In this document: one piece after another, positions 40,224-49,000 of the stretch
Numbering within the stretch: position 1 is the first letter of the stretch
Layout: every line of letters begins with the position of its first letter
Assembly: GCA_963664705.1 (NCBI GenBank)
Contig: OY761556.1
Span: 1,792,001 to 1,856,000 of the forward strand
Direction: 5' to 3'
Length of the DNA stretch: 64,000 bases
Source: Acidobacteriota bacterium
Lineage (GTDB): Bacteria; Acidobacteriota; UBA6911
Notes under the pieces: model-generated
Told to the model about the DNA's origin: nothing
Seen by the model: the letters and a program-made list of their open reading frames with translations, nothing else
Databases searched by the model: none
Position numbers and translations under genes: made by a program

Positions 40224-41180
40224 TCAATGGACGGTGACCGGCAAACCAAGTCCTTCGAGCAGCTCCTTTAGTGAATCGATCCGGGCTTCCGACGGAGGCG
40301 TCGCCTCCAGGATTATCTTGGAGTCATCCAGCCTCTGGTATTTCATGATGCCAAGATTGTGATACGGAAGGAGCTGAACTACCGTAACGGCATTCCCCAG
40401 GGATTTGCAGAATTCGCCGGTTTCCCGGATGCTGTCCTCCGAATCGTTGAAGTCCGGAATGACTGGAATGCGGATCTGCATTTTGCCACCGGCCCCTGCA
40501 ATCCGTTGAGCATTTTCGAGGATCAGGTCATTCGGGACACCGGTAACAATCCTATGCTGCTCATTGTCCATGTGCTTCAGGTCGTATAAAAACAAATCCG
40601 TATAGGGCAGGACCGATTCGATGATGTCGTGGGCGGCATAGCCTGTGGTGTCGAGCGCGGTGTGAATGCCGCGGGCTTTAAGGCCTTTCAGGATTTCCAA
40701 TGTGAACTCCGGCTGGCAAAGTGGCTCTCCGCCGGAAACGGTGACGCCTCCACCGGATTGTTCGTAAAAGGGAATATCCTTGACCAGGCGTTTCAGAAGC
40801 TCTTCCACGGTATAATCCGTGCCGCAGACATAGAGGGCTTTGGAATAGCAGACGGAGGCACAGTCGCCGCAGTCTTCGCAAATAGACCGATTAATGCGAA
40901 CGTGCTGAATATCCTCCTGCGTCACCGCGTGCTTGGTGATGGCGCCGGGGCTGATTCCATGCTGACTGCACGCGGTTAGACATTTGCCGCAGCGAGCCAC
41001 GCCAATGCACCTCATGGAGATCCAGCTGAGCTGTGAATGGAATTGCTGGGACTCCGGACTGTGGCACCACGGGCAACGCAAGGGACAGCCCTTTAGAAAT
41101 ACGGTCGTCCGAATGCCGGGGCCATCCTGTAAAGAGAACCCCTGGATGTCATAGACCTTTCCGGTTAGTGAGTTTTCCAA
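40224..41180 (-). CDS. Glycyl-radical enzyme activating protein (radical SAM with ferredoxin insert)
   Basis: DGPGIRTTVFLKGCPLRCPWCHSPES, two extra Cys clusters, SGGEP, DLKHMD and LLPYH. Confidence 0.95.
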   Translation of the reverse strand: MENSLTGKVYDIQGFSLQDGPGIRTTVFLKGCPLRCPWCHSPESQQFHSQLSWISMRCIGVARCGKCLTACSQHGISPGAITKHAVTQEDIQHVRINRSICEDCGDCASVCYSKALYVCGTDYTVEELLKRLVKDIPFYEQSGGGVTVSGGEPLCQPEFTLEILKGLKARGIHTALDTTGYAAHDIIESVLPYTDLFLYDLKHMDNEQHRIVTGVPNDLILENAQRIAGAGGKMQIRIPVIPDFNDSEDSIRETGEFCKSLGNAVTVVQLLPYHNLGIMKYQRLDDSKIILEATPPSEARIDSLKELLEGLGLPVTVH

Positions 41181-41210
41181 GATCCGATAGCCTCATTCCG
41201 CAGGAAAAAG

Positions 41211-43631
41211 CTAAAAAGACAGTTCGGTGCGACGGATGATGTCTTCCTGGCTGGCCTTGTATAATTCTACAAAATATGCGCTGAAGCCCGCTATTCGCAC
41301 CACAAGATCTTTGTATTCCTCCGGGGTCTGCTGCGCCTGTCGCAAAACTTTTCCGCTCACGATGTTGAACTGCATCTCCATTCCACCTAAGGCAAAATAG
41401 GTCCGGATGAGCGCGATCAGTTTGCCTTTGCCGGTTTGATTACTCAGCGCCGTGGGATGGAAACGCATATTCAGCAGCGTGCCGTTGGAGAATTTTTTCT
41501 GGTCAATCATGGCTACGGACTTTAGCGTGGCAGTGGGACCGCTCTTATCCAGTTGCTGTACGGGAGAGATTCCGTCGGCAAGCGGTTCGCCGGCCCTCCT
41601 TCCGTCCGGAGACGCGGCGGTCGTCATTCCAAACAAAACGTGGGTTGTCACCGGATACAATCCTGCGGCATATCGACCACGAGGCCCTGTGCTGCGGTTG
41701 ATAGCATTGCCGTAAACATCGGATGCCCATTTTGCAAACTCATCGCTGTACTCGTTGTCATTGCCGTAATGAGGTGCTTCATTCAGAATGAGCTGGCGAA
41801 GATCTTCCTTTCCTTCCCAGTTGCTCATGAGCGCATCATACAAATCGCGGGCCGTAACCAGCTTTTTGTCATATACCATGTATTTCACAACCGCGAGACT
41901 GTCCGCAATGTTGCCGATGGCGATCCCGGCATTTCCGGTAGAGTTATACCTGGCGCCGCCCTTCATGACATCTTTGCCGGATTCCATGCAGCCGTCGATG
42001 GTTGCGGAGAGGAGTGGAAGCTGCATGTGTTCGGACGCCACATACTCCCACGTATTGACCATGCTGATCTGCCAGTTGACGAAGTACTCGATCTGCTTCT
42101 TAACGGCGATCAGGACATCATCGAAAGTTTCCATTTCATATAAATATCCGGTGGGCAACCCGACCTGCCGATCCGATGGCTTGCCGTCGGGACCTGGCAT
42201 TGGATTGATTCCGTTATTGATGCCCAGCAGGAACGCATTCAGGAGATTGAAAAAGGACTCTGTTCCGCTTCCCCCGGGACAAGCCCATTCATCACCGCAG
42301 GCCTGGGGTTCAACGCACCCGATGAGGCAATAGTTGCGAGCGCTTTCCAGGGGCAGGCCTCGTGCCATCAGTGCCGGGATGATGATATCGTCGTTCTCAA
42401 AGGTTGGAACGCCTCCCGCAATCTGCGTGGTCTCAATGGCGGCTTCCCACAAAGCCTGTGGAGTCCCTTTATGAATGCGCAGCGATTGCGGCGGATCATG
42501 CAATACAAGACGCCCTGCAGATTGCAGCATCATGAAGGAAACGGGGTTGGTCGCGTCCTTGCCATCTCTGGTTACACCGCCAATAGTCATCAACTGACCA
42601 CTGGTGTAGCCCGGACCCGAAAGAGTGGCGAAGTAGGGCCATATTTTGTTCATTTCCGCGACCTTGAGATAAAAGAGATCCAGCAGCTCTTGTGCCTGGT
42701 CGTGGGTAATGCGTCCGGCTGCGATGTCGGCGTCGTAATAGGAGCCAAGATATTGATCCACGCGGCCAAAGCTGATGCCATGCTGCTGGCCATCGAGGCA
42801 CATCGCAATCTGATAGAGGTACATGCACTGGACGGCGTCATGATAGGTGCGGCAGGGGTTTTCCATAATCCAGTTAAGACAGTCCGCCATCTGGAGAAGT
42901 TCTTTTTTGCGAGCGGAATCCGATTCCAGAGATGCCAAACGTTCACATTCCTGTGCGTAGCGCTTGGAGAAAGTGATGATGCCGTCACATACGAGGGTTA
43001 CGGCTCGGTAAAAATTGTATCGAACGGCCCCATCGCCGAACATGACGCCTTCCAGTTCATTCATACGGTCCCGGGCTTCTGCCCGGATAGCGCCAAACCC
43101 CTTGTGCATCGCCTTTTCAAAATTGGCTACGAAATGCCCTACCGGAGAAGAGCAAATATTGGAGGTGCCGAAGTAAACGACGCCACTGCCGGCTGCATCA
43201 AAATAGCCCAGCGGGATGTATTCATCCACCTTGGCGCTCAGACATTCCTTGCGCCAAAAATCTCCCGTGTTCAGAACGTATTGGGCATCCTTTTCGTCAA
43301 TGTCATAAGGATCTGCTTCCCGCAAGGGAATCGTTCCCGCCCTCAATTCATCCAGAAACCAACCAAAGGAGGTCTCCGGGTACAGGGCGCACGCACGGTA
43401 GGAAGTTGCCTGCCAGCCTACAATCACCTCATCGGGATTGATAAGCACCGGGAGTTTTTCGCAAAGGTTTTTGAAGTTTTTGGCGCGTTTCAAAATACCC
43501 TGCAATTGAGGATTCTCCTTGTAGAACTCTGTAACGATTTTGTACCGGGCGATGCAGATGCGCGGCCTGGTGGACCGATACTTCTGGCGGATTTTGGTAA
43601 CGCGATCGGTTACAGGGCTTAGAGCGAACAT
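41211..43631 (-). CDS. Glycyl radical enzyme of unassigned class (PFL-like fold)
   Basis: ISFGRVDQYL, Cys loop CLIGCVEP, TAASPDGR..GEPLADGISP and Gly loop LVVRIAGFSAYF; RBS AGGAGG. Confidence 0.93.
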   Translation of the reverse strand: MFALSPVTDRVTKIRQKYRSTRPRICIARYKIVTEFYKENPQLQGILKRAKNFKNLCEKLPVLINPDEVIVGWQATSYRACALYPETSFGWFLDELRAGTIPLREADPYDIDEKDAQYVLNTGDFWRKECLSAKVDEYIPLGYFDAAGSGVVYFGTSNICSSPVGHFVANFEKAMHKGFGAIRAEARDRMNELEGVMFGDGAVRYNFYRAVTLVCDGIITFSKRYAQECERLASLESDSARKKELLQMADCLNWIMENPCRTYHDAVQCMYLYQIAMCLDGQQHGISFGRVDQYLGSYYDADIAAGRITHDQAQELLDLFYLKVAEMNKIWPYFATLSGPGYTSGQLMTIGGVTRDGKDATNPVSFMMLQSAGRLVLHDPPQSLRIHKGTPQALWEAAIETTQIAGGVPTFENDDIIIPALMARGLPLESARNYCLIGCVEPQACGDEWACPGGSGTESFFNLLNAFLLGINNGINPMPGPDGKPSDRQVGLPTGYLYEMETFDDVLIAVKKQIEYFVNWQISMVNTWEYVASEHMQLPLLSATIDGCMESGKDVMKGGARYNSTGNAGIAIGNIADSLAVVKYMVYDKKLVTARDLYDALMSNWEGKEDLRQLILNEAPHYGNDNEYSDEFAKWASDVYGNAINRSTGPRGRYAAGLYPVTTHVLFGMTTAASPDGRRAGEPLADGISPVQQLDKSGPTATLKSVAMIDQKKFSNGTLLNMRFHPTALSNQTGKGKLIALIRTYFALGGMEMQFNIVSGKVLRQAQQTPEEYKDLVVRIAGFSAYFVELYKASQEDIIRRTELSF

Positions 43632-43768
43632 GGGAATTCCTCCTGGGTTCTTTCAAGATGATGCAAAAGCACAAAGACTAAATATTCTACAGTGAATGGC
43701 TTCGCCGGAACAAGTACGGAAACATTAGTAGATGGTGGGATTCCTGGTGGATTTGTACCGGGTTTACT

Positions 43769-43960
43769 GGAGCGCCGCCGTCTCGGTTAATGCTGCGTAT
43801 TATTTGCAAAAATGCCCGCCCAAACTAGAACTGTTGAGGGCGGCGGCTGGCTGCCGCCCTCAACAAGGCTTCGCCCTCGAGAAATAGTATGCTGCATTCG
43901 CCGCGGCGGAATCAGCGTCGTTGAAGCGCCCACGCTCCAGCCGCGAGACGGTGACGCTCC
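43769..43960. repeat. REP/MITE-like element with 17-bp imperfect terminal inverted repeats and an internal hairpin
   Basis: ggagcgccgccgtctcg (43769-43785) versus cgagacggtgacgctcc (43944-43960), 15/17 complementary; internal hairpin at 43832-43865. Confidence 0.55.
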
Positions 43961-43980
43961 CCGGTGTCGCGAGCGGTTCG

Positions 43981-45063
43981 CTAGTAATAAAAAAGCTGGG
44001 TCTGGATGACAAATTGAGTTCGAGTCGGGGCATTCGTTTTGAAGATGCGGGCCAAACCAGCCTTTACATTGACCCTGTGTTTCAGCGGCCAAAGAGCAAT
44101 TCCGCCCATCGCCTTTTTGTCATCTGCTACGCCAGGCTTGGTAAAATCCCTCGAAGAAATTTGGAAGAAAGGCCCAAGCCTGGCTTTCTTCACATAATAG
44201 GACGATTCAAACATCCAGGCATTTTGCTGGGGCAGGGATGCAAAAGTGTTGCTTCCATCATAGCGGATAAAATCCGCCTGAGCCGTGAAAGCGTCTCCCT
44301 TTCGGACCGGAAGGTCCACGAATACATCCACGCCATTAGCGCTATAATTACCCTGTCGGTCGAAGCTGGCGCCTATTCCAACAATCTTCTTCTGTCCCAG
44401 GGTTGTTCCCGTGTAGAAGAATCCCGTATCCGCCTGAAATGGATAATAGACAATGCGAGCCATGTATCGATAGGGGAAGTCTCCCTCATGATTGCGGTTG
44501 CCGCGATAAACGCCCACGCGGTATTCCAGGTGCTTTTTGATATAACCGCGAGCCTGCAACCCGTAGTCGCGCCCGTTTTTTGACCGCGTCGGATCGGAGG
44601 AGAGGAAAGAATAGGTGCCGTACTCAATCGGAAGCAAGGTTGTGGCCGATTGGGCGGAATTGTGGGATACCGGAACAATCAGCATGCCGCCATCGAGTTG
44701 GAATTCCGGACGAAAGGCATAATTGACATAGGCATCCTGCAGGAATATTTCCGCGGTTCTTGTTCCGTCGGCCGCCTTTTTACCCAGATTGGGGCTATCA
44801 CTTTCGATGAAATAGGAGAGCTTCGATGTAATTTTTCCGCCGGCAATGAGCCGGAATCGGCGAAGGAATACATTGTTGTTGTTCTGGCCGACTGCCGTTG
44901 AGTTTTCAAGAGATTCAAACTGTGGTTGCGCCAGGAATCCGAAAGTAACCGACGTATTGCCATCGTTGGCTGAGAATTTCCATGGTGGCCCCTGGGCAAA
45001 CACCGGTTGAATACAACAGATAAAAAGCAGGGAGATGCAGCATACAAAAAATGTGGTCTTCAT
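43981..45063 (-). CDS. Outer-membrane porin (OprO/OprP-like)
   Basis: Signal peptide; FLRRFRL, LQDAY, GRDYGLQARG; amphipathic strands; C-terminal QLFYY. Confidence 0.75.
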   Translation of the reverse strand: MKTTFFVCCISLLFICCIQPVFAQGPPWKFSANDGNTSVTFGFLAQPQFESLENSTAVGQNNNNVFLRRFRLIAGGKITSKLSYFIESDSPNLGKKAADGTRTAEIFLQDAYVNYAFRPEFQLDGGMLIVPVSHNSAQSATTLLPIEYGTYSFLSSDPTRSKNGRDYGLQARGYIKKHLEYRVGVYRGNRNHEGDFPYRYMARIVYYPFQADTGFFYTGTTLGQKKIVGIGASFDRQGNYSANGVDVFVDLPVRKGDAFTAQADFIRYDGSNTFASLPQQNAWMFESSYYVKKARLGPFFQISSRDFTKPGVADDKKAMGGIALWPLKHRVNVKAGLARIFKTNAPTRTQFVIQTQLFYY

Positions 45064-45285: not shown

Positions 45286-46557
45286 TTACTTATGGGCTGA
45301 TTTGGCAGGTCTGACGTAAGCGCCCCAATAGCTCATTCCGACGAAAACTGCGCCCCCGATGATGTTTCCAATCGTGACCGGCACAAGATTTTTTACGATG
45401 AAGTTGTACCAGGTGAGCGCGGCAACATCCACTCCGGGGACTATGGGCACATTGGTCCAATGAATAAAAAGAATCCCTGCCGGAATGTAGAACATGTTGG
45501 CGATGCAGTGTTCAAATCCAAGCGTCACGAAACACATGACCGGGAAAAGGATGGCAAAGATCTTGCCGACCGTTTGGCGGGCGGCCATGGCCATCCAAAC
45601 CGCCAGGCAAACGAGCCAGTTGCAGCCGATTCCGCGCCAGAGCGCTTCGCTGAAGGTAAGGTGCACCTTGCTGTAAGCCGTTTTGACTGCTGCCGCACCG
45701 AGTGCCCCCTCCGAGGTTTTCCATAATCCGGAATAAAAGAAAATTGCGGCCACAAACAAAGCGCCGAGGAAATTGGCAAAATAGACCAGCGCCCAGCGTC
45801 GCATCATTTTTCCCAGTGTTATTTCCCGGGACATCACACTGGAAACCATCAGCGTATTTCCGGTAAAGAGTTCCGCACCCGCGATAACAACAAGCATCAA
45901 TCCGACGCTGAACACGATTCCGCTGAGAAGCTGCTTGAATCCCGTGCCAAATTTAGCAGCTGCATCAAATGTTACGGTTGCGGAAAGAAATCCTCCAAAG
46001 GCAATATAGGCGCCCCCAAGAATTCCAAGTACGAAAACCGTAAGCCAGGGGGAGGTTGCCTTATAGACACCGACTGTTTGTGCCACCGTTTCGGCAATAT
46101 TTTTTGGCGCTTTGTCTTCGAGCGTCGGGACGGGAAACTGTAAGGTTCCAACGAATTTTTCAAAGCGCCCCACCGCCTTTTTTTCCTGCGTAATTTTTCG
46201 CTTAACCGCTTTATTGACGACTCGAATGATTTCATCGGGCTTGAACGGCTTCGGAAGATAATCCATCGCACCCCGTTTCATCGCTTCCGTTGCCCGGCCC
46301 AGCGATGGATGGCCGCTGATCATCACCATGGCTGAATTGGGGGATCTCTTGTCGATCTCCTCGACCACGTCCAGCCCATCTAGACCCGGCATCATCCAAT
46401 CCACCAGGATAACGTCATAGGTTTTTTCAGATACGAGCCGAATGCCTTCCTTGGGATCAGGGGTGGAGGTTACTTCATAACCCTCCGCCTCAAATATCTT
46501 TCGGCAGGATTTCAGAACTATCTCTTCGTCGTCGATGATCAACATTTTTTCAGCCAT
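45286..46557 (-). CDS. Response-regulator receiver domain fused to a formate/nitrite transporter (FNT)
   Basis: REC at aa 1-120 (DD9-10, D53, S81, K103PF), then GAELFTGN, GIGCNWLVCLAVW, GFEHCIANM and VTIGNIIGG in one uninterrupted ORF. Confidence 0.93.
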   Translation of the reverse strand: MAEKMLIIDDEEIVLKSCRKIFEAEGYEVTSTPDPKEGIRLVSEKTYDVILVDWMMPGLDGLDVVEEIDKRSPNSAMVMISGHPSLGRATEAMKRGAMDYLPKPFKPDEIIRVVNKAVKRKITQEKKAVGRFEKFVGTLQFPVPTLEDKAPKNIAETVAQTVGVYKATSPWLTVFVLGILGGAYIAFGGFLSATVTFDAAAKFGTGFKQLLSGIVFSVGLMLVVIAGAELFTGNTLMVSSVMSREITLGKMMRRWALVYFANFLGALFVAAIFFYSGLWKTSEGALGAAAVKTAYSKVHLTFSEALWRGIGCNWLVCLAVWMAMAARQTVGKIFAILFPVMCFVTLGFEHCIANMFYIPAGILFIHWTNVPIVPGVDVAALTWYNFIVKNLVPVTIGNIIGGAVFVGMSYWGAYVRPAKSAHK

Positions 46558-46668
46558 GTGTTTCCCCTTACATAATCGATACGCAGAACAGAATGTGATT
46601 CCTGCCTGATCAGACTGCGCTGCTTTCCGCAGAAATTTATGACCAAAGGCTTATTTCTTCTTCTGCGC

Positions 46669-47040
46669 TCACTTGCTACCGGCATTACTCTCCAAAACCT
46701 GCTGAATCGCATGCATTAGCTCGTCCGGCCGGAATGGTTTTGGAATGAACTGGGTCGCTCCTGATTTCAGGACATCTGCAACGGTCTCGGGAGTGGGATA
46801 GCCGCTCATGACGATCACCGGGATATCCGGCAGGCTTTTCCGGATTTCTTTCATCAGGAAAAGGCCGTCGCGCTTCGGCATTTTTACGTCGATGAGCAGG
46901 AGATCAAAGGAACCCTTTTCAAGAGCTTCCAGAGCGGCATCGGCACCGTTAACCGTGGATACGGTGTATCCTTCCGATTCGAGGATGCGCGTGCAGCTTT
47001 TGATTACAATGATGTCGTCGTCAACGACCAACACTTTCAT
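46669..47040 (-). CDS. Single-domain response regulator
   Basis: LVVDDD, LIDVKMP..DG, MSGY and FIPKPF. Confidence 0.92.
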   Translation of the reverse strand: MKVLVVDDDIIVIKSCTRILESEGYTVSTVNGADAALEALEKGSFDLLLIDVKMPKRDGLFLMKEIRKSLPDIPVIVMSGYPTPETVADVLKSGATQFIPKPFRPDELMHAIQQVLESNAGSK

Positions 47041-47050
47041 TTTTCGAACC

Positions 47051-49000
47051 CTATTCCTCTATCGGCAGCCAAACGGTAAAAGTACTACCGCGTCCCAACT
47101 TGCTTTGTACGTGAATCGTACCGCCGTGGCGCTCAACGATCCCGTAGGTCACAGACAATCCAAGTCCCGTTCCTTGTCCGATGTCCTTGGTGGTAAAAAA
47201 CGGGTCAAAAATTTTATCCAGATGCTCTGGCTCAATACCGCAGCCGCTGTCTTTGCAGACAATTTCTATGCCTTTGGCTCCCGTGGTCCGCGGAGACATT
47301 CCGATGCCGGTTGTAACGGTAATCTGCCCGCCCGGTTCTGTTGCGTCGAGCGCATTCATAATCAGGTTGATCAAAACGCTCTCCATCTGATTCTGATCCA
47401 ATGTGATCAGGGGCAGATTTTCGCCTTCTTCAAGGCACAGATTGACGTTTTTGATCAAGGCCTGGTTCTCGAGAAGCGCGATGGTAGCACTGCAAAGGCG
47501 ATTGACGTCGGTCGATTGGCGATCCAGATCCGTTTGCCTGGAAAAATCCAATAGCCCCTTTACAATTTTGCGGACGCGCTCGGTTTCCTGCGAGATGGTT
47601 TCGAGGTCCGATCGAATGTCATCCGGCAGGTCATTTCGCCGCAGCAACATGTGGGTAAAGGTAAACACTCCGGTCAGGGGGTTGTTAATCTCGTGAGCCA
47701 CTCCGCCGGCAAGCTTTCCAACACTGGCTTGCTTCTCGAACTGAATCAGTTTGGTCTCGCTCTCAGCCTTTTGTCGTTCGTCGCGCTGACGAAGGGATGC
47801 CAGCATCTGCTGAAAGGTTTTTTGAAGAACGCCGATTTCGCTATTCGATATGGGGCCGATTTCAGGTGAGAGATTACCCTGGGAGACCTGGGTGCTCGCC
47901 TCAATGAGCTTGTGAACGGGCTGTATGATTCTGTTCGCGAACAGGTAGCCAAGGCTGACGGCGGCGCCCATGGCACCCACGATGATAACGAAGAAAAATG
48001 CGAGCGCATCGGATCGGATATCGGCATATTTTGTCTCGAGCACACCGGCATAGAGCATTCCAACTCGCAGGCCGGAAATATCCTCGATCGGTTCATACGC
48101 GGTGATGTACCAGTCGTTGACTACGAAAGCGCGTGCCGTCCATTTCTTCCCATCCACCAATACATGCCTGGTCACTTCCTCCGATGCAACACTGCCGATT
48201 GCTCGTGTTCCGTCGGGATTGAGAACATTGGTGGCTATCCGGATATCCTTCAGGAATATCGTGGCACTCCCGATGCTGCGTTCCTTATAGATTTCGTGTC
48301 GGAACACAGTGTCCCTTACGCGATCGACGATTTCGTGGCTTTGATTCAGTAAGACGCCGCCATACATGACGCCCACCATGCGGCCGGACTCGAAAACAGG
48401 CACGGCGGCCGCCAAAGCCATTCCGGTCAGGTATTCGCTTTCTTTGCTGGGCTTTGCCATTGGCGTGGGACGCAGGCGAATTCTTGCCCTTTCTGCAAGA
48501 TCCGGGTTCTCCGCAAACAGGAAATCATGATTGAGGACAACGGTGCCGGCGACGGCCGTTTTCTTCTTCAGCGCCATCGCTGCAATAGGATTAGGCGGCG
48601 AGTTGCTTTCTGCTGCAGGGTTCGGGCCAATACGACTGACCGTGGTGCCATCGAGGGTCACGATTCCGAGAAAATCCAGCTCCGTTTGCTGTGCGACTTC
48701 TCTGAGCCGGTTGATCGGCCTTTTCGGATCCTTCGTATTAATGGAAGAGGCGAATGCCGGATCGGTGGAGGCCAACTGGAGAGAAATGCGAATTTCCTTG
48801 GCCCTGGAGAGATAAATATCGCTGGCAGCATTCAGGTCCAGGCTGACACGATTGATGGCTTCCGTAAGAACGGCCCCATATAAAAGGCGACCGCCTACCC
48901 AAATCGCAACTCCGCAAATCAGCAAGGCAATTCCAAGGAAGCTCAGAATCAGCTTGGATCGGGTGGAATACAGCAAAGGAAATTCCTCTCGCCAGAACAA
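47051..49000 (-). CDS. Cache-HAMP sensor histidine kinase
   Basis: Two TMs; periplasmic Cache (ATIF...RIATNV...G.RAIG, WYITAYEPI); AHEINNPL, NLIMNALDA, FDPFFTTK and GTGLGL. TTG start approximate. Confidence 0.92.
   Translation of the reverse strand: MFWREEFPLLYSTRSKLILSFLGIALLICGVAIWVGGRLLYGAVLTEAINRVSLDLNAASDIYLSRAKEIRISLQLASTDPAFASSINTKDPKRPINRLREVAQQTELDFLGIVTLDGTTVSRIGPNPAAESNSPPNPIAAMALKKKTAVAGTVVLNHDFLFAENPDLAERARIRLRPTPMAKPSKESEYLTGMALAAAVPVFESGRMVGVMYGGVLLNQSHEIVDRVRDTVFRHEIYKERSIGSATIFLKDIRIATNVLNPDGTRAIGSVASEEVTRHVLVDGKKWTARAFVVNDWYITAYEPIEDISGLRVGMLYAGVLETKYADIRSDALAFFFVIIVGAMGAAVSLGYLFANRIIQPVHKLIEASTQVSQGNLSPEIGPISNSEIGVLQKTFQQMLASLRQRDERQKAESETKLIQFEKQASVGKLAGGVAHEINNPLTGVFTFTHMLLRRNDLPDDIRSDLETISQETERVRKIVKGLLDFSRQTDLDRQSTDVNRLCSATIALLENQALIKNVNLCLEEGENLPLITLDQNQMESVLINLIMNALDATEPGGQITVTTGIGMSPRTTGAKGIEIVCKDSGCGIEPEHLDKIFDPFFTTKDIGQGTGLGLSVTYGIVERHGGTIHVQSKLGRGSTFTVWLPIEE

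Follow-up and report, generated by a model that had tools for sequence, protein, structure and literature searches.

The window analysed here, 64,000 nucleotides of an Acidobacteriota genome (contig OY761556.1, positions 1,792,001 to 1,856,000), carries at its positions 45,286 to 49,000 three intact open reading frames (ORFs) that lie on the minus strand in a single run: a sensor histidine kinase, a stand-alone receiver, and a fusion of a receiver to a formate/nitrite transporter (FNT) channel, separated by spacers of 10 and 111 bases. The kinase, receiver and fused receiver-channel genes, described in a first-pass annotation as a Cache-HAMP kinase, a stand-alone receiver and a 423-aa receiver-FNT ORF, are confirmed by ORFs and Pfam, and all residues that it had listed for the fusion were found (D9 and D10 as the DD pair, D53, S81, K103, LFTGN with T232, EH with E349 and H350, and GNIIGG). 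In Pfam searches the fusion matched Response_reg over residues 6-114 (E 2e-29) and Form_Nir_trans over residues 155-411 (E 1e-83), the lone receiver matched Response_reg and nothing else, and the kinase matched sCache_3_3 / Cache_3-Cache_2 / dCache_3, HAMP, HisKA and HATPase_c. No DNA-binding domain was detected in any of the three ORFs by Pfam, in line with the earlier description of the cluster. Two assemblies or runs of one sample each have a contig that spans the entire stretch and differs from it nowhere (0 differences); they are possibly the source of the window and hence not independent. A promoter and terminator scan gave signals at chance level. The features of the locus are as follows.

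47051..49000, minus strand: sensor histidine kinase, 649 aa, with transmembrane segment (TM), double Cache, TM, HAMP, HisKA (H436) and HATPase, from Pfam
47996..48880, minus strand: extracytoplasmic double-Cache sensor, residues 41-335, from AlphaFold2 (AF2, predicted template modelling score, pTM, 0.90), Foldseek and VIA; first module CitA-like
48026..48280, minus strand: second Cache module, predicted to be membrane-proximal, residues 241-325, with markers T247, F249, R254, T257 and Y302; floor Y317 replaces Phe (PMC11804620, in part)
46669..47040, minus strand: stand-alone receiver, 123 aa, with D51, S79 and K101; kinase-contact signature as in the fusion
45286..46557, minus strand: receiver-FNT fusion, 423 aa, from Pfam, family search and model
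46201..46557, minus strand: receiver domain of the fusion, residues 1-119, with D9, D10, D53, S81, Y100 and K103
46108..46200, minus strand: alpha-5 helix extension followed by a linker of fixed length, residues 120-150, with invariant P142 and D148
46054..46107, minus strand: segment matching the FocA cytoplasmic N-terminal helix, residues 151-168, with P151, G163, K166 and T168
45313..46053, minus strand: FNT channel core, residues 169-415, with central constriction F216, F343, H350 and A353 and slit L220, L230, T232 and V316

Conservation of the receiver-channel fusion

The best 120 of 7945 protein matches all joined a receiver to an FNT (120/120), at 72-93% identity and 98-100% coverage, and the full fusion was present in at least 56 genome loci (56 of the 80 examined). 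The records bearing it belong to Acidobacteriota, Thermodesulfobacteriota, Spirochaetota and Latescibacterota, and the complete chromosome of the cultured Desulfosediminicola flagellatus IMCC35005 (locus L044) carries the whole module. Within the same genus (n = 24, the unpublished genome G034 being excluded from the genus and class counts) the fusion was whole in 11 genomes and cut at contig ends in 3 more, and none of the 15 class members outside the genus had it. The same-genus genomes group with the Acidobacteriota records.

An alignment of 176 sequences was built from 56 sequences of the loci (window included) and 120 database proteins, partly overlapping. The receiver shows the PF00072 phospho-acceptor pattern (acidic pair, phospho-Asp, Ser/Thr, aromatic switch and Lys), and D9, D10, D53, Y100 and K103 are kept in all 176 sequences, S81 being Ser in 175 and Thr in one. 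The intact phospho-site claimed for the window thus holds for the whole alignment. Likewise, the pore residues F216, L220, L230, T232, V316, F343, H350, A353, K297, E349 and N354 are kept in 175-176 of the 176. Apparent frameshifts or remnants were seen in the fusion, kinase or lone receiver of four metagenome assemblies (L036:3783-5192, L095:6039-7493, L098:7625-8011 and L099:10174-10827); these reflect either decay or assembly error.

The channel part is a member of the FNT family (PF01226, 280.5 bits against a cut-off of 34.6; TIGR00790, 264.5 against 232.3). Its closest solved relative is FocA (E 1e-56), followed by LciA, HSC (2e-26) and NirC (2e-22), and in Foldseek the channel model matched FocA with a TM-score of 0.8-0.87 over the target at ~41% identity. 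Both constrictions of the canonical FNT pore are present, the central one as F-F-H-A and the cytoplasmic slit as L-L-T-V. The fusion resembles FocA of E. coli, Salmonella and Vibrio (PDB 3KCU, 9G49, 3Q7K and 3KLY) in fold, in both constrictions, in the equivalents of H209/T91 and K156/E208/N213 and in the residues of the N-terminal helix, whereas FocA is without a signalling domain and the fusion carries a receiver.

The fusion lies below the cut-off of the FocA subfamily (TIGR04060, 253.5 vs 290.1 bits). Compared with the subfamily table of PMC5525234, it departs from the FocA residues S92, T/S93, K/R100, N113 and L167, having G233, N234, V241, R254 and R308 instead. The FdhC residues V/L/I90, Q208 and S167 are replaced by F231, E349 and R308, and G92, N93, V34 and L37 fit. 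Among the HSC residues F90, G92, N93, E208 and R/K167 fit and F/Y34 does not (V174 in the fusion), HSC structures matching far more weakly than FocA. By the same table, the TM1 positions are FocA/FdhC-like and the Omega-loop and TM4 residues nearer HSC. The fusion was the only FNT found by search of the genome, which also encodes two formate dehydrogenase alpha subunits above the family cut-off.

The receiver is placed at the N-terminus of the channel, as the first-pass annotation had it, at a nearly constant distance from the N-terminal helix: K103 and K166 are 63 residues apart in 167 of the 176 sequences and 61 in the other 9. P142, D148, P151 and K166 are invariant, and P151, G163, K166 and T168 align with P12, G23, K26 and T28 of FocA. 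In FocA this helix is reported to be mobile, to serve as a docking site for PflB and to be capable of closing off the channel, with translocation requiring K26 and T28 (PMC12559229, in part). In the monomer model of the fusion both domains fold and alpha-5 extends to residue 133; the best solved relatives of the receiver include NtrC1, aligned through residue 133-136, and a long alpha-5 helix is shared with the NtrC1/DctD receivers.

The kinase and its predicted formate sensor

The kinase shows the HisKA sensor-kinase pattern (H436, N545, D584 and G610 for the H, N, G1 and G2 boxes), a HAMP domain and hydrophobic segments at residues 13-42 and 328-346, and its sensor was modelled as a double Cache domain. 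When all PDB sequences were searched with the sensor at E up to 1, the sole matches were two structures of Cache domains with formate bound, 8PY1 and 8PY0. A profile search against these gave E-values of 3e-6 and 1e-5, and they also came first in the VIA structural ranking (Z 17.0 and 16.9; root-mean-square deviation, rmsd, 2.2 and 2.0). Among the Foldseek matches listed, whole double-Cache domains were better by E-value and the formate complexes 8PY1/8PY0 had the lowest rmsd.

Pocket markers described in part of PMC11804620 were mapped via sequence and profile alignments to T247, R254 and Y302, the floor Phe falling on Y317. Among 51 sensors T/S247 is kept in 50, R254 in 49, T257 in 49, T270 in 48 (the window has S) and Y302 in 50, and conservation within the sensor peaks in the second Cache module (0.74 vs 0.57). 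The Arg/Thr/Tyr set given in that source for a formate pocket is thus present, and formate was confirmed, according to part of a preprint, for another sCache_3_3 domain bearing these residues (bioRxiv 10.1101/2025.02.11.637667). With PacF, Atu0526, R3 (8PY1) and R6 (8PY0) the sensor has in common the sCache_3_3 and Cache_3-Cache_2 families, the pocket Arg/Thr/Tyr and an rmsd of ~2 Å; those proteins are almost all chemoreceptors, with one HisKA protein in the supplement (PMC11804620), whereas here the domain belongs to a histidine kinase, is the second module and has a floor Tyr. Because the PDB matches, the structural ranking and the kept pocket markers point the same way, formate is our best guess for the ligand. 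The carboxylate ligand proposed earlier for the Cache domain agrees with this, and is narrowed by sequence and fold to predicted formate.

The same genome contains a paralogous Cache kinase (L082:7767-10968; G000:C1:6525766-6528967, minus strand) whose sensor is 29% identical and keeps the pocket Arg/Thr/Tyr; a receiver-kinase hybrid precedes it.

Kinase and fusion are linked in the genomes. The synteny expected from the window was seen in 46 of the 56 fusion loci; a contig edge ends four of the other 10 and the kinase is missing in six. In the genus (n = 24) a kinase with at least 55% sensor identity was present in 8 genomes, always adjoining the fusion, and in 0 of the 10 genomes without the fusion. 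Kinase and fusion trees have 20 of 43 splits in common, including 15 of 17 strong ones, a concordance that kinship alone could produce. Receiver positions 13, 14, 17, 20 and 21, which we take, after the HK853-RR468 literature, to be those that contact the kinase, were scored in 128 receivers of the genome: the lone receiver, 34% identical to the fusion receiver, was the only one to match it at 5/5 positions, and none matched at 4/5. No DNA-binding receiver among the 128 had the signature at 4 or 5 of 5 positions. The contact residues of the lone receiver agree with the first-pass annotation, which had proposed it as a sink or relay. The lone receiver occurs in 45 of the loci examined and is missing at some kinase-bearing ones (L048, L028 and L034). 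The effect of kinase loss was compared by tip counts and branch lengths, and the signature drifts where the kinase is lost: S17 is kept in 2 of 7 kinase-less genomes vs 49 of 50 kinase-linked ones, the Fisher value of 3e-5 being overstated because the relatives are not independent (seven genomes on ~six branches). The receiver-to-channel branch-length ratio was 1.34 without the kinase vs 0.96 with it.

Proposed switching of the channel and its alternatives

Altogether, a complete channel, a phospho switch and a sensor kinase with most of the formate residues are present, and in these anaerobes the pore is therefore likely to be gated directly on formate and not via gene expression. The full proposition, on which we stand at about even confidence, is that of a three-gene two-component module without a transcription factor, in which a predicted formate-sensing kinase phosphorylates the receiver-FNT and thereby switches formate flux. 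The phosphorylation-gated channel suggested by the first-pass annotation is, taken as a whole, partly supported.

In the proposed sequence of events, outside formate would bind the second Cache module, a step that is fairly well supported, and H436 would hand phosphate on to D53 in the fusion and to D51 in the lone receiver, a step with good support of an indirect kind. The phosphorylated receiver may then shift its long alpha-5 helix and pull on the helix of residues 151-168, counterpart of the FocA segment that shapes or blocks the cytoplasmic vestibule; this step we only infer. Outside formate would open the pore for uptake and its absence would shut it against leak, a polarity that we favour somewhat over the reverse. 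The lone receiver may buffer phosphate or relay the signal to other proteins.

Several observations weigh against this proposal. In the monomer model, residues 126-169 have a predicted local distance difference test score (pLDDT) <50 and the pTM is 0.57, so the model shows no contact between receiver and channel. Judged by its subfamily residues, the channel is a mosaic that fits no described FNT subfamily, so that the permeant has to be deduced indirectly. One representative, P0122, has kept the receiver and its pore has decayed. On the sensor side, DctB ties with 8PY1/8PY0 in VIA (Z 16.8), and the first Cache module resembles CitA in the same ranking and may bind another ligand. The floor Phe said in part of PMC11804620 to exclude acetate and larger acids is replaced, by Y317 in 37 of 51 sensors and mostly by small residues otherwise, some of which may be alignment slips; R254 is missing in 2 of 51 sensors and Y302 in one, and in one divergent clade the residue at the floor is small, with two members lacking the Arg. 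Here it is the second Cache module that resembles the formate binders, in PacF the first, and identity to 8PY0/8PY1 is ~20%. Flanking genes are variable and seldom formate-related. Furthermore, 6 of the 14 fusion-bearing genomes of the genus have no kinase and still keep D53, S81 and K103; their receiver must therefore serve some function, or obtain phosphate, independently of this kinase.

A first alternative is that the kinase phosphorylates the receiver without any gating of the pore, and that phosphorylation controls how the channel clusters, how it is turned over, or how a partner docks on it (a formate-consuming enzyme, compare PflB on FocA). The N-terminus of FocA is the docking site of PflB (PMC12559229, in part), and in five genomes this receiver, helix extension included, sits on soluble NuoE, where pore gating is impossible. 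The highly conserved alpha4-beta5 face of the receiver and the low confidence of the link in the model would also suit such a role. The near-invariant linker length and the invariant P142, D148 and P151, however, suit mechanical coupling better than a loose tether, and the genes next to the module include no conserved partner. We regard this alternative as unlikely, while giving it real weight.

The channel may also be phospho-gated with another small anion (acetate, HS-, nitrite or lactate) as signal or permeant, which we consider distinctly improbable: FocA is far ahead of HSC and NirC as a relative of the channel, its TM1 positions are FocA/FdhC-like, and the sole PDB sequence relatives of the sensor bind formate. 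What speaks for it is that at G233, N234 and R308 the channel agrees with HSC and not with FocA in the subfamily table (PMC5525234), that many hosts are sulfate reducers, that acetyl-CoA synthetase genes lie near several loci, and that the sensor has a residue other than Phe at its pocket floor, a small one in one clade.

Information could even flow in the reverse direction, the channel being always open, its receiver a phosphate sink that reports transport and the lone receiver the true output. Both receivers do carry the kinase-contact signature, and the lone receiver is as frequent in the loci as described above. Transporters are known as co-sensors, as for DctA/DcuB with DcuS. Since the fusion is the most constant member of the module, the lone receiver is missing at some kinase loci, no kinase of this group was found in the genus without the fusion, and the genome has no DNA-binding receiver with the signature, we give this possibility little credence. 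An artefact of assembly or gene calling, or a neutral singleton, is a negligible possibility for the fusion (the first-pass annotation had named the assembly artefact and the singleton). It is ruled out by a single uninterrupted frame seen in at least 120 protein clusters and at least 56 loci from several phyla, including the complete chromosome of a cultured strain, with both domains present and the catalytic residues invariant.

The receiver-FNT module is real, conserved and apparently uncharacterised. No study of a receiver-FNT fusion was found in the literature searched, part of the searching being blind to the spelling 'formate/nitrite', and the earlier statement that no characterised example exists held within it. 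Galperin's 2010 census reportedly names transporter output domains; a prior in-silico mention is therefore plausible, and the 2006 and 2010 censuses may list the architecture. In the portion of the FNT subfamily paper covered (PMC5525234, main text), response regulators are not mentioned. Like CheY, CheB, PleD and receiver-enzyme fusions, the present protein has a non-DNA-binding output and a receiver fused directly to its effector (PMC5847659); the part of that source covered notes receiver-enzyme fusions and no other such outputs. It differs in that the output, as predicted from sequence, is an integral membrane pentameric channel.

The switching of formate flux through FNT channels is a long-standing question, and FocA is also under transcriptional control. 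FocA is controlled by pH and PflB docking (PMC12559229, in part), and its gating is poorly controllable because the signals for the gate are pH and a partner that binds only transiently; the receiver-FNT carries a built-in switch, which makes gating by the N-terminal helix directly testable. If the proposed gating is true, a channel joins the known two-component outputs, a formate-sensing kinase joins a sensor family known almost entirely from chemoreceptors, and sulfate reducers, syntrophs and fermenting Acidobacteriota have a fast control point of formate exchange.

Related fusions and neighbouring genes

In five genomes a receiver of the fusion type heads a NuoE-type 2Fe-2S subunit, with 56% identity over residues 1-149, helix extension included, and this NuoE-fused receiver is nested in the FNT-fusion receiver clade with support 1.0. 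The receiver-NuoE operons (L033:584-7580, L029:3-7619, L073:5342-12987, L079:10639-17892 and L074:4183-6957) include NuoG-like, Nfn-like and NuoF-like genes and lie mostly directly upstream of the same kinase; the contact signature is common to all receivers of these clusters. Among the cluster representatives, other FNT fusions have a C-terminal receiver (P0139) or two further types of N-terminal receiver (P0124 and P0125), and FNT termini are also fused to a CBS pair and to PilZ (P0146, P0175 and P0156). Trees set P0139 and P0125 apart in both domains with moderate support; receivers have probably joined FNTs about three times. Tentatively, and with a little less than even confidence, we propose a transcription-free formate regulon in which one formate-sensing kinase phosphorylates several receivers; these would act directly as the gate of an anion channel and, in some Desulfobacterota, as the switch of a NuoE/NuoF/Nfn-type redox complex linked to NAD(H). 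The phosphoaspartate-gated channel would then have arisen ~three times in the FNT family.

At other Desulfobacterota loci, such as L029:9989-10615 and L031:9288-10618, one or two 208-aa proteins lie between kinase and fusion. They consist of a receiver with the kinase-contact signature and an 85-residue helical tail, for which the ESM Atlas gave no usable match and Pfam weak ones only (Frankia_peptide and LigA). The genome of the window has a separate receiver-NuoE fusion (L081:11910-13058; G000:C1:6023909-6025057, minus strand) that precedes a NuoF-like gene; in the tree the receiver of this protein falls with the one from P0125, a different receiver-FNT family. In the clade of the window's fusion, a channel with 58-63% identity that has no receiver occurs at L094:8241-9176 (G013), in a genome that is 99% complete and in which no match to the kinase sensor was found; a secondary loss of the receiver is possible, being left undecided in one quick tree and weakly favoured in another.

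Downstream of the fusion the window contains a further group of genes.

40224-45063, minus strand: porin (Porin_O_P/ExtI-like), unassigned single-Cys glycyl radical enzyme and its activase

A FocA-PflB-like link of the fusion to this glycyl radical enzyme (41211-43631) was considered and rejected: the enzyme scores 133 bits vs a PFL cut-off of 994 and has a single-Cys GCVEP motif. The genome encodes at least 8 glycyl radical enzyme homologues, and the porin and glycyl radical enzyme of the window were found in 0 of 56 other loci. A scan covering 102 of 179 ORFs selected from the flanks found no conserved metabolic partner gene beside the module; the ORFs were diverse and included hydrogenase, acetyl-CoA synthetase, FdhD/FdhE and unrelated genes. 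Elsewhere in the genome of the window (L106:5992-8130; G000, ~4.40 Mb) a formate dehydrogenase alpha gene adjoins hydrogenase-4 membrane subunits and has an in-frame TGA after CARV, which likely encodes selenocysteine.

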